64,000 nt of DNA from Escherichia coli (GCF_017348835.2 NZ_CP071375.1); one strand, 5' to 3'. Shown: positions 6,768-53,057, numbered from the stretch's first letter. Numbers and translations are program-made. The notes: a model not told the origin generated them from the sequence alone.

Positions 6768-6978
6768 GCCTGATGCGCTACGCTCATCAAGCCTACAAAA
6801 TCTATTGCAACATGTTGAATCTTCGTGCGTTTGTAGGCCGGATAAGGCGTTCACGCCGCATCCGGCATTAGGTGCTCAATGCCTGATGCGCTACGCTTAT
6901 CAGGCCTACAAAATCTATTGCAACATGTTGAATCTTCATGCGTTTGTAGGCGGATAAGGCGTTTTCGCCACATCAGGT
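6768..6978. repeat. REP/BIME cluster (tandem repetitive extragenic palindromes)
   Basis: Two near-identical ~100-bp units containing gcctgatgcgctacgct and ggataaggcgtt...gccgcatccggc motifs typical of E. coli REP elements; coordinates approximate. Confidence 0.7.
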
Positions 6979-23387: not shown

Positions 23388-24274
23388 TGCCACTGCTGGA
23401 TAAGCTGCGTGAGCAGTACGGGGTCGGACCGGTATGCAGCGAACTGCATATTGCCCCGTCAACGTATTACCATTGTCAGCAACAGCGACATCATCCGGAT
23501 AAACGCAGTGCCCGTGCGCAGCACGATGACTGGCTGAAGAAAGAGATACAGCGCGTATACGATGAAAATCACCAGGTATACGGTGTGCGTAAAGTCTGGC
23601 GTCAGTTGTTACGGGAAGGTATCAGAGTGGCCAGATGCACTGTGGCACGTCTCATGGCAGTTATGGGACTTGCCGGTGTTCTCCGGGGTAAAAAGGTCCG
23701 CACTACCGTCAGCCGGAAAGCCGTTGCCGCATGCGACCGCGTAAACCGTCAGTTCGTGGCAGAACGTCCAGACCAGTTGTGGGTGGCTGATTTTACCTGG
23801 GTAAGCACATGGCAGGGCTTCGTTTATGTGGCGTTCATCATTGATGTGTTCGCCGGATACATCGTGGGATGGCAGGTCTCATCATCCATGGAAACAACAT
23901 TCGTGCTGGATGCACTGGAGCAGGCGTTGTGGGCCCGTCGGCCGTCCGGCACAATCCATCACAGTGATAAAGGTTCTCAGTATGTATCGCTGGCCTACAC
24001 GCAGCGGCTTAAGGAAGCCGGATTACTGGCATCAACAGGGAGTACTGGCGACTCGTATGACAACGCGATGGCTGAGAGCATCAATGGTCTTTACAAAGCG
24101 GAGGTAATACACCGTAAGAGCTGGAAAAACCGGACAGAAGTGGAACTGGCCACACTAACGTGGGTGGACTGGTATAACAATCGACGATTGCTGGAAAGGC
24201 TGGGCCATATTCCTCCGGCAGAAGCAGAAAAAGCTTATTATGCTTCCATCGGAAATAATGATCTGGCAGCCTGA
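23387..24274 (+). CDS. IS3-family transposase OrfB (DDE catalytic domain; normally expressed as OrfAB fusion by -1 frameshift)
   Basis: 295-aa ORF overlapping OrfA stop in -1 frame; DDE-type integrase-core features (…HSDKGSQYVS…); A-rich run ggaaaaaataatg at the overlap. Confidence 0.85.
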   Translation: MPLLDKLREQYGVGPVCSELHIAPSTYYHCQQQRHHPDKRSARAQHDDWLKKEIQRVYDENHQVYGVRKVWRQLLREGIRVARCTVARLMAVMGLAGVLRGKKVRTTVSRKAVAACDRVNRQFVAERPDQLWVADFTWVSTWQGFVYVAFIIDVFAGYIVGWQVSSSMETTFVLDALEQALWARRPSGTIHHSDKGSQYVSLAYTQRLKEAGLLASTGSTGDSYDNAMAESINGLYKAEVIHRKSWKNRTEVELATLTWVDWYNNRRLLERLGHIPPAEAEKAYYASIGNNDLAA

Positions 24275-43939: not shown

Positions 43940-44165
<226 letters not shown>

Positions 44166-48962: not shown

Positions 48963-49949
48963 ATGATACGTTTCGCTGTGATTGGTACGAACTGGATCAC
49001 TCGCCAGTTCGTCGAGGCCGCCCATGAGAGCGGTAAATACAAGTTAACCGCCGTTTATTCCCGCAGCCTTGAGCAGGCTCAGCACTTCGCCAATGATTTT
49101 TCTGTCGAGCATCTGTTTACCTCGCTGGAAGCGATGGCGGAAAGCGATGCCATTGACGCGGTGTATATTGCCAGCCCGAATTCCCTGCACTTTTCCCAGG
49201 CACAACTTTTCCTTAGTCACAAAATTCATGTGATTTGCGAGAAACCGCTGGCGTCGAATCTGGCGGAAGTGGATGCCGCCATTGCCTGTGCGCGGGAAAA
49301 TCAGGTGGTGCTGTTTGAGGCATTTAAAACAGCCAGCCTGCCGAACTTTCATTTGTTGCGCCAGGCGCTGCCGAAAGTAGGCAAACTGCGGAAAGTCTTT
49401 TTCAACTATTGCCAGTATTCCTCGCGGTATCAACGTTACCTGGATGGTGAGAATCCCAACACCTTTAATCCGGCATTCTCTAACGGTTCAATTATGGATA
49501 TCGGCTTTTACTGCTTGGCGTCGGCGGTAGCGTTATTTGGTGAGCCGAAAAGCGTGCAGGCAACCGCCAGTTTACTGGCAAGTGGTGTAGATGCCCATGG
49601 CGTGGTGGTGATGGATTACGGTGATTTCAGCGTCACCTTGCAGCACTCAAAGGTCAGTGATTCTGTCCTGGCAAGCGAGATTCAGGGCGAAGCGGGATCG
49701 CTGGTGATTGAAAAACTGTCTGAATGCCAGAAAGTGTGCTTCGTGCCGCGTGGCAGCCAGATGCAGGATCTCACCCAGCCGCAGCATATTAATACCATGC
49801 TCTACGAAGCAGAGCTGTTCGCTACCCTGGTGGATGAGCATCTGGTGGATCATCCAGGGCTGGCGGTCAGTCGCATCACAGCCAAACTGCTGACCGAGAT
49901 CCGCCGCCAGACTGGGGTGATTTTTCCGGCAGATAGCGTAAAACTATAA
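48963..49949 (+). CDS. ygjR: Gfo/Idh/MocA-family NAD(P)-dependent oxidoreductase
   Basis: Track ORF 48945..49949; start trimmed to MIRFAVIGTNWITRQF (328 aa); recognised as YgjR. Confidence 0.8.
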   Translation: MIRFAVIGTNWITRQFVEAAHESGKYKLTAVYSRSLEQAQHFANDFSVEHLFTSLEAMAESDAIDAVYIASPNSLHFSQAQLFLSHKIHVICEKPLASNLAEVDAAIACARENQVVLFEAFKTASLPNFHLLRQALPKVGKLRKVFFNYCQYSSRYQRYLDGENPNTFNPAFSNGSIMDIGFYCLASAVALFGEPKSVQATASLLASGVDAHGVVVMDYGDFSVTLQHSKVSDSVLASEIQGEAGSLVIEKLSECQKVCFVPRGSQMQDLTQPQHINTMLYEAELFATLVDEHLVDHPGLAVSRITAKLLTEIRRQTGVIFPADSVKL

Positions 49950-49999
49950 TTGCCAAAGTAAAACAGTGTAAAAGGTATGTAACAGACCATTGACTGACT

Positions 50000-50231
50000 G
50001 AATGGTCTGTCATACTTTGTTACCTGCAAAGGGGAGTAACTTCATTGCCGGTCGATCGTCATTACGATGTGTGAAAAACCACATCCGGTCACCGGGCAAC
50101 CCGAAAGGAATACGCAGACGTATTCCTTTTTTGTTGTAAGTGAGACCTTGCCGGAAGGCGAGGTCTATGCATAAAAAGCAGCGGCTGACGTCTTCCGACG
50201 TTGGCCGTTTTTTTATGTGTAAGGAACTTCT
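50000..50231 (+). promoter_or_regulatory. alx 5' leader: pH-responsive / yybP-ykoY-type (manganese) riboswitch region
   Basis: Long structured leader before alx with several hairpins (e.g. ggaatacgcagacgtattcc); the alx leader is an established riboswitch-type regulatory RNA in E. coli; exact boundaries not determinable by eye. Confidence 0.5.
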
Positions 50232-51197
50232 ATGAATACTGTCGGCACGCCGTTGCTATGGGGCGGATTCGCTGTTGTTGTCGCCATTATGCTGGCTATC
50301 GACCTGTTGTTGCAGGGGCGTCGTGGGGCACATGCCATGACCATGAAACAGGCTGCGGCCTGGTCGCTGGTCTGGGTGACGCTGTCGTTACTGTTTAATG
50401 CCGCTTTCTGGTGGTATTTAGTCCAGACTCAGGGATGCGAAGTCGCGGACCCGCAGGCACTGGCCTTTCTCACGGGTTATCTGATTGAGAAATCGCTGGC
50501 GGTCGATAACGTCTTTGTCTGGCTGATGTTGTTCAGCTATTTCTCCGTTCCGGCGGCATTACAACGTCGCGTGCTGGTGTATGGCGTGCTCGGGGCGATT
50601 GTTCTGCGTACCATCATGATCTTCACAGGCAGCTGGCTGATTTCGCAGTTCGACTGGATCCTGTATATCTTCGGTGCCTTCCTGCTGTTTACCGGCGTGA
50701 AGATGGCGCTCGCCCATGAAGATGAATCAGGCATTGGCGACAAGCCGCTGGTGCGCTGGCTACGCGGTCATTTGCGCATGACCGACACCATCGACAATGA
50801 GCATTTCTTTGTGCGTAAGAATGGATTGCTGTACGCCACACCGCTGATGCTGGTACTGATTCTGGTGGAATTGAGCGACGTGATTTTTGCCGTGGATAGC
50901 ATTCCGGCTATCTTCGCCGTGACCACTGACCCGTTCATTGTGCTGACCTCAAACCTGTTTGCGATCCTCGGCCTGCGTGCGATGTATTTCCTGCTGGCGG
51001 GCGTAGCAGAGCGTTTCTCGATGCTCAAATATGGCCTGGCGGTGATTCTGGTATTTATCGGTATCAAGATGCTGATTGTCGACTTCTACCATATTCCAAT
51101 CGCCGTCTCGCTGGGCGTGGTGTTTGGCATCCTGGTGATGACGTTTATTATCAACGCGTGGGTGAATTATCGGCATGATAAGCAGCGGGGAGAATGA
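50232..51197 (+). CDS. alx: TerC-family membrane protein (putative Mn exporter)
   Basis: 321-aa polytopic ORF; recognised as Alx (YgjT). Confidence 0.85.
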
Positions 51198-51812
51198 TTC
51201 GCTGTATATTAAGCCATTACTAGAGATAACTCATTCCAGACAAAGGTGAGCTATTAATTATGTAATCGGCTTATAGCTCTTTACAAAAAGACCGCACGGG
51301 TGTTGGTGGCGTCAAAATCGCCGAAGCGTTCCCTGGAGGCCGGGGCGACGCGCATGGATGCGCGGCGAGGGCGCATCTTACAGGGACGTTACCTTGCGCC
51401 CGACCCGGTAGCCGCAAGGGATAAGCTGAGGGAACCGCGCAGCGGCGATTTTGTTCGCCAGAGCCTGGGGGTGCAGGGGGCGGCGGCGATTGGCCGCCCC
51501 CTGCGCGCTCCCTGCGCCAGTGACTTTATATGGCATAGCACATTAAAGGAGCGCAACCGTTCTCATATTCCAAATAGTTTTGCCCATATGTTATCTAATC
51601 AGCCTTAGTAGCCAGTCCTTCCCTCTGTTTATGTCAAATAAATGTAACCATTAAGTTGCAAAACATGACCTCCCTTTAAAATCCAGCATTTTTCGCTTCC
51701 CGAAGCTGTAACTTTCCTTATACTCGACCTTGCAAACACTTTGTTACATCCTGAAAGATGCGTCGACAGAACGCACCAGGGATGTGCGACAACACAATGA
51801 AAGGATCGAAAA

Positions 51813-53057
51813 ATGACTACGCAACGTTCACCGGGGCTATTCCGGCGTCTGGCTCATGGCAGCCTGGTAAAACAAATCCTGGTCGGCCTTGTTCTGGGGA
51901 TTCTTCTGGCATGGATCTCAAAACCCGCGGCGGAAGCTGTTGGTCTGTTAGGTACTTTGTTCGTCGGCGCACTGAAAGCTGTTGCCCCCATCCTGGTGTT
52001 GATGCTGGTAATGGCATCTATTGCTAACCACCAGCACGGGCAGAAAACCAATATCCGTCCTATTTTGTTCCTCTATCTGCTGGGCACCTTCTCTGCAGCT
52101 CTGGCCGCAGTAGTCTTCAGCTTTGCCTTCCCTTCTACCCTGCACTTGTCCAGTAGCGCGGGTGATATTTCGCCGCCGTCAGGCATTGTCGAAGTGATGC
52201 GCGGACTAGTAATGAGCATGGTTTCCAACCCCATTGACGCGCTGCTGAAAGGTAACTACATCGGGATCCTGGTGTGGGCAATTGGCCTCGGTTTCGCACT
52301 GCGTCACGGTAACGAAACCACCAAAAACCTGGTCAACGATATGTCGAATGCCGTCACCTTTATGGTGAAACTGGTCATTCGCTTCGCACCGATCGGTATT
52401 TTTGGGCTGGTTTCTTCTACCCTGGCAACCACCGGTTTCTCCACACTGTGGGGCTACGCGCAACTGCTGGTCGTGCTGGTTGGCTGTATGTTACTGGTGG
52501 CGCTGGTGGTTAACCCATTGCTGGTGTGGTGGAAAATTCGTCGTAACCCATTCCCGCTGGTGCTGCTGTGCCTGCGCGAAAGCGGTGTGTATGCCTTCTT
52601 CACCCGCAGCTCTGCAGCGAACATTCCGGTGAATATGGCGCTGTGTGAAAAGCTGAATCTGGATCGCGATACCTATTCCGTTTCTATTCCGCTGGGAGCC
52701 ACCATCAATATGGCGGGCGCAGCAATCACCATTACCGTGTTGACGCTGGCTGCGGTTAATACGCTGGGTATTCCGGTCGATCTGCCCACAGCGCTGCTGT
52801 TGAGCGTAGTGGCTTCTCTGTGTGCCTGTGGCGCATCCGGCGTGGCGGGGGGTTCTTTGCTGCTGATCCCGCTGGCCTGTAATATGTTCGGTATTTCGAA
52901 CGATATCGCCATGCAGGTGGTTGCCGTCGGCTTTATCATCGGCGTATTGCAGGACTCTTGCGAAACCGCGCTGAACTCTTCAACTGACGTGCTATTCACT
53001 GCGGCAGCTTGCCAGGCAGAAGACGATCGTCTGGCAAATAGCGCCCTGCGTAATTAA
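51813..53057 (+). CDS. sstT: Na+/serine-threonine symporter
   Basis: 414-aa polytopic [24 protein letters not shown]; recognised as SstT. Confidence 0.9.

Follow-up and report, generated by a model that had tools for sequence, protein, structure and literature searches.

TRIP1 is a family of dispersed repeats that goes back to Rudd (1999) and whose function is unknown; its RNA is predicted to form a "double Y" (PMC10888264). The copies lie 38-96 bp after stop codons, have a GC content of 62-65% and mediate chromosomal rearrangements and inversions, in which they serve as homology, and the literature treats TRIP1 in Escherichia coli only, as a recombination substrate (PMC10888264). One member of the family, TRIP1d, is a unit of 264 bp that lies 96 bp after the stop codon of alx and 255 bp before the start codon of sstT, its ensemble energy being given as -145.37 (Li et al., 2024, Genes 15:236, PMC10888264). 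Here we analyze the alx-sstT spacer in a 64,000-nucleotide stretch of an E. coli genome (GCF_017348835.2, NZ_CP071375.1; hereinafter, the window) and describe a GC-rich, palindrome-dense block that is, practically beyond doubt, TRIP1d itself, an intact member of this family. As a genomic feature, TRIP1d is already known and is an ordinary member of a described family; what is new here is a functional hypothesis based on structure and motifs, together with a wider family. Compared with the published account (PMC10888264), the present analysis adds homologs in five more genera, covariation, the strand, the GGA hexaloops, the link to the TwoAYGGAY RNA and a 348-bp unit.

The second relevant system is TwoAYGGAY (RF01731), the original alignment of which, from gammaproteobacteria, includes several Psychromonas copies with ACAUGGAUGU and ACAGGGACGU loops, and for which a "very large P1" is reported in the supplement (Weinberg et al., 2010). 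TwoAYGGAY was already matched by a model of CsrA sites and proposed to bind CsrA (Gardner and Eldai, PMC4333381). For CsrA, in vitro selection (SELEX) yielded the consensus RUACARGGAUGU, whose GGA lies in the loop of a hairpin; RsmE makes contact with a hexaloop of the form ANGGAN; and a CsrA dimer bridges sites 10-63 nt apart, best at more than 18 nt (PMC7652899). TRIP1 has been unexplained since 1999 and TwoAYGGAY since 2010, and the link between them joins both in one testable hypothesis, namely that TRIP1d belongs to the TwoAYGGAY class of RNA modules, is probably transcribed by read-through from alx and offers a docking site to a CsrA dimer. Judging from the sequence, we give this hypothesis a chance only slightly below even.

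TRIP1d and its locus

The spacer between alx (50232-51197, + strand) and sstT (51813-53057, + strand) spans 615 bp in the E. coli window. The GC content is 0.64-0.71 over 51300-51549, compared to 0.38-0.45 in the spacer on both sides (100-nt windows), and the core of the block contains 65.9% GC compared to 51.5% for the whole window. Inverted repeats are dense in the block (11 pairs), and its + strand folds with a minimum free energy (MFE) of -144.5 kcal/mol (z = -4.0), which was equaled by none of 200 dinucleotide shuffles. The original prediction of a GC-rich, palindrome-dense block at 51280-51560 is thus borne out by the GC profile, the inverted repeats and the fold energy, and alignment of the copies sets the limits of the conserved unit at 51294-51557, coincident with the published limits of TRIP1d. 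The two palindromes singled out in that prediction fared differently: ggggcggcggcgattggccgcccc forms the center of the hairpin at 51473-51504, which is conserved and shows compensatory changes, whereas gatgcgcggcgagggcgcatc is peculiar to the TRIP1d copy and was rejected as a structural element. The latter consists of the 3' half of one conserved hairpin joined to the 5' half of the next; other copies read GATGTGGGCTGAGGGCGCGTC at this point, which is not self-complementary.

The block is identified as TRIP1d because its length and position match the published values exactly (alx stop at 51197, sstT start at 51813, unit at 51294-51557) and because it is 88-91% identical to TRIP1a, TRIP1b and TRIP1c. 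The identity to the copies in the aqpZ-lysO, putP-efeU and dusC-yohP spacers extends over 259-267 bp, with a unit length of ~264-273 bp. The GC content, the MFE and a two-domain consensus fold likewise agree with the published properties of TRIP1; in sequence family, length, locus, GC content and "double-Y" fold, the element of the window and the TRIP1d of the literature are the same, with no difference in the element itself.

Further copies were found: a megablast search detected the family in 5425 of the 5426 complete E. coli genomes, at a median of three places each (range 1-5), and across thousands of genomes these copies occupy the same five loci. Among the origins considered in the original prediction, a decayed member of a repeat family is therefore half right, in that the repeat family is real and the copy is intact rather than decayed; an origin as a recombination relic finds no support, although rearrangement at TRIP1 copies, as its substrates, is documented (PMC10888264). 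The block is, moreover, a repeat known in the literature but not an annotated one: the RefSeq annotation under every TRIP1 match, among the matches listed, is "none". We suggest that the block be labeled TRIP1d and that open reading frames (ORFs) running through it not be called.

A conserved fold and its relationship to TwoAYGGAY

A scan of species-representative genomes with a pattern derived from conserved blocks, which required ATGGAT and GGGATAAG, yielded 41 loci from Escherichia species, Klebsiella, Enterobacter sp. ENT03, Pseudescherichia, Kluyvera and Pseudocitrobacter. Three more hits of the pattern had no BLAST match to TRIP1d and look like chance hits. In ENT03, Pseudocitrobacter, Kluyvera and Pseudescherichia, the unit that is repeated has a length of ~640 bp and consists of a TRIP1-like module A and a module B that lie on opposite strands, head to head (such pairs are located at L031 6617-7270, L033 1868-2340, L056 3756-4225 and L021 6300-6830). 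Module B is a diverged sister of module A and shares its architecture.

An alignment of 44 non-identical full-length homologs from the six genera (Escherichia, Klebsiella, Enterobacter, Pseudescherichia, Kluyvera and Pseudocitrobacter; alignment A4) yields an 80-pair consensus in which 95.9% of the cells are paired, compared to 38.9-44.5% when the 3' partners are slid by 1-3 columns. Changes on both sides of a pair occur in 29 pairs (5-10 after sliding) and in 218 cells (13-41 after sliding), and the covariation score was reached in none of 500 shuffles. The excess of G-U cells over A-C cells (96 vs. 21) indicates that the structured strand is the + strand of the window, and the MFE values for the + and - strands (-144.5 and -129.5 kcal/mol, respectively) agree with this assignment. 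A folded single strand of ~265 nt, corresponding to the + strand and hence to the strand of alx and sstT, is very likely to be under selection. Covariation and strand asymmetry thus support the structured RNA envisaged in the original prediction, as a conserved fold with a putative transcript.

The fold comprises two domains (Table 1). In domain 1, a long closing helix encloses two adjacent hairpins; in domain 2, a terminal helix follows a GC-rich hairpin. The apical pair of hairpin 2 alternates between A-U (23 sequences) and G-C (21 sequences), and the terminal helix covaries, reading GCGCUCC/GGAGCGC, GCGCUCU/AGAGCGC in Enterobacter and CGUUCAC/GUGAACG in Pseudescherichia. The small hairpin at 51435-51445 is present also in module B, as GUGCGAAGCAC.

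Table 1. Features of TRIP1d and its surroundings, in positions of the window
Feature	Position	Strand	Remarks
Strain-variable segment with TRIP1d	51239-51586		348 bp: 55-nt AT-rich leader, 264-bp core and 29-nt tail; from alignment with O157:H7 TR01, ATCC 25922 and K-12
AT-rich leader	51239-51293	+	34.5% GC; not in the O157 allele; final ~30 nt similar to the 5' flanks found at other TRIP1 copies
TRIP1d core repeat	51294-51557	+	264 bp, 65.9% GC; 88-91% identity to TRIP1a/b/c
Closing helix system	51295-51344 with 51404-51470	+	helices 1-6; helix 2 has 13 pairs, 6 compensatory
Domain 1, TwoAYGGAY-like core with two GGA hairpins	51305-51462	+	own covariance model R1, 177.2 bits, sole match in the 64-kb window
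Hairpin 1, CGACGCGC-AUGGAU-GCGCGGCG	51346-51367	+	hexaloop 51354-51359; helix 7: 9 pairs, 3 compensatory, 99.5% of cells paired
Hairpin 2, apical ACAGGGACGU (51380-51389)	51369-51401	+	ANGGAN hexaloop AGGGAC at 51382-51387; helices 8 and 9
AGGGAUAA motif	51417-51424	+	invariant in alignment A4 but part of the retrieval pattern; mostly paired, mean unpaired probability 0.24
Small hairpin CCGC-GCA-GCGG	51435-51445	+	helix 10; columns 158/164 are G-C in 35 sequences, A-U in 9
GC-rich hairpin GCAGGGGGCGGC-GGCGAUUG-GCCGCCCCCUGC	51473-51504	+	inverted repeat I2, 12 nt, 100% complementary; helix 11: 5 compensatory pairs, 97.3% of cells paired
Terminal helix GCGCUCCC (51505-51512) / AGGAGCGC (51547-51554)	51505-51554	+	closes the variable loop 51513-51546; helix 12: 4 compensatory pairs
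3' tail CGTTCTCATATTCCAAATAGTTTTGCCC	51558-51586	+	not in the O157 allele

In an Infernal scan of Rfam, the best match at the site is TwoAYGGAY, which extends over 51301-51466 on the + strand and covers the full model with 36.6 bits; other TRIP1 copies (from E. albertii, a further Escherichia species and a second E. coli) match it on the same strand with 27.0-36.9 bits. At this site, the gathering score is not reached for any family, and direct membership of TRIP1d in an Rfam family was accordingly rejected. Module B is intermediate in this respect. The module B sequences of Pseudocitrobacter and Kluyvera sichuanensis (L033 2218-2281 and L056 4104-4167, respectively) pass the TwoAYGGAY threshold with 49.2 bits, the gathering score being 43, and the same two sequences match, along its whole length (positions 1-157), a covariance model (R1) that was built from domain 1 of module A only (58.8 and 65.6 bits, E ~1e-12 to 1e-13). 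Ten more copies of module B match R1 at 22-68 bits. Because these intermediates match both models, TRIP1 is likely to be a divergent, below-threshold relative of TwoAYGGAY.

The architectural comparison runs along the same lines. Both RNAs are multi-copy and have a long P1 around two adjacent hairpins; in TRIP1, helices 1-6 enclose the two hairpins in the manner of the large closing P1. Loop 1 (AUGGAU) fits the TwoAYGGAY loop motif, AYGGAY, exactly, and loop 2 (AGGGAC) has a purine in place of Y, with some family members carrying AUGGAU or ACGGAC in this loop. A further difference is that TRIP1 has ~100 nt more, comprising the GC-rich hairpin and the terminal helix, which lie outside the Rfam model. 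Other structured elements, namely an IS110/IS621 bridge RNA, a retron msr-msd, a group II intron fragment and a hok/sok-type toxin locus, were considered and rejected, given that there is no Rfam match to any of them and no linked enzyme or toxin gene.

GGA hexaloops as candidate CsrA sites

Both loops of domain 1 are hexaloops closed by a C-G pair, and the GGA is invariant in both of them in all 44 sequences, with loop 2 conforming to A-N-GGA-Y, where N is G, C, U, A or a gap. The mean unpaired probability of the GGA is 0.99 in loop 1 and 0.81 in loop 2, and GGA triplets elsewhere in the element are mostly paired. The loop 2 motif and the module B sequences were not part of the retrieval pattern; among the 12 module B sequences, which thus stand outside the pattern selection, GGA is present in loop 1 of all 12 and in loop 2 of 10. 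The two triplets start at 51356 and 51384, i.e., 28 nt apart, within the range that a CsrA dimer bridges, and the loop contexts, CAUGGAUG (51353-51360) and CAGGGACG (51381-51388), conform to ANGGAN / CANGGANG. Because both loops fit the SELEX, hexaloop and dimer-spacing patterns, we tentatively propose that domain 1 docks CsrA, a possibility that we rate somewhat short of an even chance.

GGA in an ANGGAN hexaloop closed by C-G is likewise found in CsrB, CsrC, RsmZ and the hcnA hairpin (RsmE), and the flanks of the TRIP1 loops resemble the SELEX consensus, with ACAUGGAUGU in most copies and (U)ACAGGGAYGU. CsrB has ~18-22 sites whereas TRIP1d has two and no recognizable dedicated promoter, and the CsrB type is a single-copy, regulated small RNA (sRNA) gene whereas TRIP1d is a dispersed repeat with a large rigid fold. 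A sponge sRNA of the CsrB/CsrC type, with more than 10 GGA sites and its own promoter and terminator, was accordingly rejected: only two loops are accessible, and the element has no promoter-like site on the + strand and no terminator-like site.

TRIP1d is co-oriented with alx, and no intrinsic terminator (hairpin with a U-tract) was found on either strand within 51198-51812, and none between alx and the element. Since no terminator-like site intervenes and there is no promoter-like site on the + strand, read-through from alx would be the simplest source of the RNA. The gene context of the family also counts in favor: none of the 38 loci with called ORFs on both sides is divergent, and the solo copies of Klebsiella share the orientation of the upstream gene at 11 loci and oppose it at one. 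In the proposed mechanism, the element would be transcribed by read-through from alx, the transcript would fold and dock one CsrA dimer at its two GGA loops, and the docking would either tie the neighboring transcripts to Csr control or titrate a little CsrA.

Several points weigh against this hypothesis. The 36.6 bits of TRIP1d are below the TwoAYGGAY gathering score of 43, and the covariation and the G-U asymmetry fit a folded single-stranded DNA intermediate equally well as an RNA. A scan for sites on the + strand detected no convincing sigma-70 promoter, nor is one conserved, given that alignment of the 5' flanks shows no shared -35 and -10 elements; the only promoter-like site near the element is on the - strand and points away. 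For loop 1 and GGGAUAAG in module A, the invariance was partly built in by the retrieval pattern, which required these motifs. The stem of hairpin 1 is 9 bp long and GC-rich, whereas the SELEX ligands mostly have at most 4 contiguous pairs (PMC7652899). With two sites per copy and 1-5 copies per genome, the sites are far too few for a CsrB-like sponge. The orientation relative to the flanking genes is not fixed in E. coli, where both orientations are found for TRIP1a and TRIP1c and where TRIP1b runs antisense to the genes beside it; this speaks against a role strictly in cis for every copy. Finally, the supplements of the cross-linking and immunoprecipitation sequencing (CLIP-seq) study of E. 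coli CsrA contain nothing for dusC, ybjE or the K-12 TRIP1 coordinates (Potts et al., 2017), a weak negative in that the tables are gene-based, repeat reads may have been discarded and K-12 lacks TRIP1d. A literature search returned no paper that links CsrA with the TRIP1 spacers (including aqpZ and yohP).

A generalization of CsrA docking, which on the present sequence evidence we consider rather unlikely, is that TRIP1 and TwoAYGGAY are portable CsrA docking modules, that is, dispersed, formerly mobile structured-RNA cassettes of Enterobacteriaceae and beyond, each of which would offer a single bridged pair of CsrA sites of high affinity. Should this be the case, a cassette beside a gene would put the transcript under Csr control or buffer CsrA locally, and the turnover of the repeats would rewire the Csr regulon between strains, the alx/sstT module being present in ~31% of E. 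coli. If the CsrA hypothesis itself holds, the presence, absence and orientation of the repeat near transporter genes (alx/sstT, aqpZ/lysO, putP/efeU, dusC/mdtQ and copA), which differ between strains, would amount to a source of regulatory variation in E. coli and Klebsiella. If it fails, the element stays a well-described recombination substrate with an unusually well-conserved fold.

Strain variation, mobility and the wider family

Comparison of the same interval across E. coli strains shows that it is polymorphic. The TRIP1d-type alx-sstT spacer is present in 1667 of the 5426 complete genomes, one TRIP1d strain, XH990, is 100% identical to the window here, the spacer of K-12 is 398 bp long and has a different filler, and in O157:H7 TR01 the outer flanks are shared up to ...ACTCATTCCA and from ATATGTTATC..., with a different GC-rich palindromic repeat in place of 51239-51586. 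The replacement repeat of the other alleles is itself dispersed, at a median of 14 places per genome, and the alx-sstT spacer is a hotspot for alternative repeats. This alternative repeat reads CCCTCTCCC..GGGAGAGGG..GGGGTGAGGG..CCCTCACCC (L058, O157:H7 TR01, ~390-520; L003, K-12, ~2090-2215) and may resemble BoxC-type repeats. A CATAT(T)CC motif recurs ~20 nt past the core in other TRIP1 copies and genera.

In the aqpZ-lysO and dusC-yohP spacers, the element is found in either orientation depending on the strain (L004 vs. L010 and L001 vs. L007, respectively), and the 40-65 bp beside the core differ as well, so that these are distinct alleles. Simple inversion was rejected on this ground as the cause at aqpZ-lysO; the K-12 aqpZ allele, furthermore, includes the aqpZ terminator hairpin whereas the O157 allele is without it. 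These differences point to independent arrivals or allele replacement as opposed to inversion in place.

Some TRIP1 copies have unusual forms or surroundings. TRIP1b of K-12 is an internally deleted form that lacks ~125 bp of domain 1, including both GGA hairpins (L011 4856-4994), and a deleted TRIP1b is found also on a 243-kb plasmid, pEC16-AU-EG1, together with an efeUOB-putP-putA chromosomal segment (L008 3936-4086). An Escherichia-like contig from a metagenome-assembled genome (MAG) carries a TRIP1 copy between a dusC-side flank at its 5' end and copA at its 3' end (L032 1-716), an arrangement that matches the c/e rearrangement type counted once by Li et al. (PMC10888264); at the end of this contig, there is a second, diverged, partial TRIP1 copy in inverted orientation. 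Three contigs assigned to unrelated taxa contain TRIP1 copies of the E. coli or Klebsiella type with 76-95% identity, namely L050 ("Bacillus sp.", 583 bp), L043 ("Sporobacter termitidis" MAG) and L017 ("Desulfacinum" MAG), and are most likely cases of contamination or mis-binning; L050, in addition, is a TRIP1 hybrid, its two flanks coming from aqpZ and putP, respectively.

The main rival of the docking hypothesis, with which it is nonetheless compatible as far as CsrA binding is concerned, is that TRIP1 is a selfish, now mostly immobile non-autonomous element, the fold of which serves its own spread via a single-stranded DNA or RNA intermediate and an enzyme provided in trans, with no host function beyond homology for rearrangements. 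The copy number is variable, from 1-5 places per E. coli genome to up to 13 in one K. pneumoniae chromosome (the Klebsiella copies, detected by blastn against a plasmid collection, are ~80% identical), the presence of the element at a given locus differs by strain, and its occurrence in one spacer in either orientation with different flanks suggests independent arrivals. The ~640-bp inverted pairs of ENT03, Pseudescherichia and Kluyvera have inverted-repeat-like ends (TTCCGTTCAC...GTGAACGGAA), and the copies at the seven paired loci of ENT03 are mutually 89-94% identical. Regions between divergent promoters are avoided, as they are by tolerated mobile repeats, and the Klebsiella copies adjoin repetitive extragenic palindromic (REP) sequences. 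In these copies (L012, L013, L039-L043 and L051-L055), the REP-like sequence GCCGGATGGCGGCTGCGCCTTATCCGGCCTAC is located ~45-90 nt upstream and is joined to the element by a conserved ~45-nt linker (...TTAATTTATTCAC...GCTGAAACTGCCGGTG), so that either the element targets REP sites or the REP belongs to the unit.

Other observations speak against a selfish element. The solo unit has no terminal inverted repeats, inverted-repeat-like ends being found only in the ~640-bp A+B pairs of the other genera; its ends (CCGCACGG... and ...GGAGCGCAAC) are not inverted repeats of each other, there is no duplication at the junctions and no empty site, and a miniature inverted-repeat transposable element was rejected on these grounds. 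When the window flanks with the core deleted were used as the query, no genome among the 5426 had the flanks without the element, so that a target-site duplication could not be defined. No transposase or reverse transcriptase gene is linked to the element, the neighboring genes being different at every locus, and the E. coli copies stay at the same five loci over thousands of genomes. The 50,697 phage records contain no match, and those "plasmid" matches that were inspected lie in chromosomal gene contexts, several of them in chromosome-sized or large non-mobilizable records that are classed as plasmids; a phage or plasmid origin was accordingly rejected. On balance, we regard the selfish element as unlikely, although less so than any of the remaining alternatives.

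A second alternative is a general structural element of 3' ends, comparable to REP and the bacterial interspersed mosaic element (BIME), that blocks 3'-5' exonucleases or insulates convergent transcription and has no specific protein partner. The gene context is in keeping with such a role. Among the 38 loci with called ORFs on both sides (crude calls, limited to ORFs of at least 110 aa), none is divergent, 18 are convergent and 20 have one flanking gene that ends toward the element, so that at least one flanking gene does so at every such locus. The GC-rich helices are very stable, and the alternative alleles of the alx-sstT spacer hold the other palindromic dispersed repeat described above. 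However, there is no terminator with a U-tract, the orientation is variable in E. coli, and a stabilizer of this kind needs neither an 80-pair multi-domain fold nor invariant loops, whereas in TRIP1 the GGA is kept while the stems covary; this alternative therefore appears quite improbable. Like REP and BIME, TRIP1 is GC-rich, palindromic, dispersed, strain-variable and located after genes or between convergent genes, in Klebsiella ~45 bp past a REP-like sequence; unlike them, it is ~10 times the length of a REP unit, has a multi-helix fold with conserved loops and is present in far fewer copies. Assignment of the block to REP or BIME was rejected, given that the matches to naRNA4, which is REP-derived, are elsewhere in the window (6836-6906, 17879-17955 and 43998-44079) and none is at the site.

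A small protein gene, be it the 102-aa Ala/Arg/Gly-rich ORF at 51300-51608, which the original prediction rightly took to be non-coding, or an ORF on the reverse strand, has next to no probability and is effectively refuted: such ORFs exist and some public annotations place "hypothetical" or "uncharacterized" proteins over or near family members, but there is no Pfam match, close copies differ by 1-nt indels, the substitutions are compensatory and keep base pairs rather than the frame, and RefSeq has nothing under the matches listed. Several copies have an ATG after GGAGCGCAAC, and the string GGAGCGCAAC(N)ATG was considered as a Shine-Dalgarno sequence and start codon of a small ORF or lost transposase. 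This was rejected because GGAGCGC pairs with GCGCUCC, as the 3' strand of a helix that covaries; the ATG, in addition, is not conserved.

In Escherichia sp. ESNIH1, a match to STnc250, an Hfq-binding sRNA, was detected below threshold (33.9 bits vs. 42 needed; L034 294-367, - strand), ~100 nt upstream of a TRIP1-like copy. The leader of alx (49950-50231), an alkali-induced gene that is reported to be controlled by a yybP-ykoY manganese-riboswitch element, showed no match to that family in the Rfam scan (E <= 10 over 49900-52000, and at the gathering score); either the model does not extend to a leader as divergent as that of E. coli, or the match was lost to the filters. Elsewhere in the window, two further Rfam matches reach the gathering score, namely the ES173 sRNA (992-1055, - strand) and an ALIL pseudoknot (23342-23458, + strand), which is a frameshift signal of the IS3 family and indicates an insertion sequence at this position.

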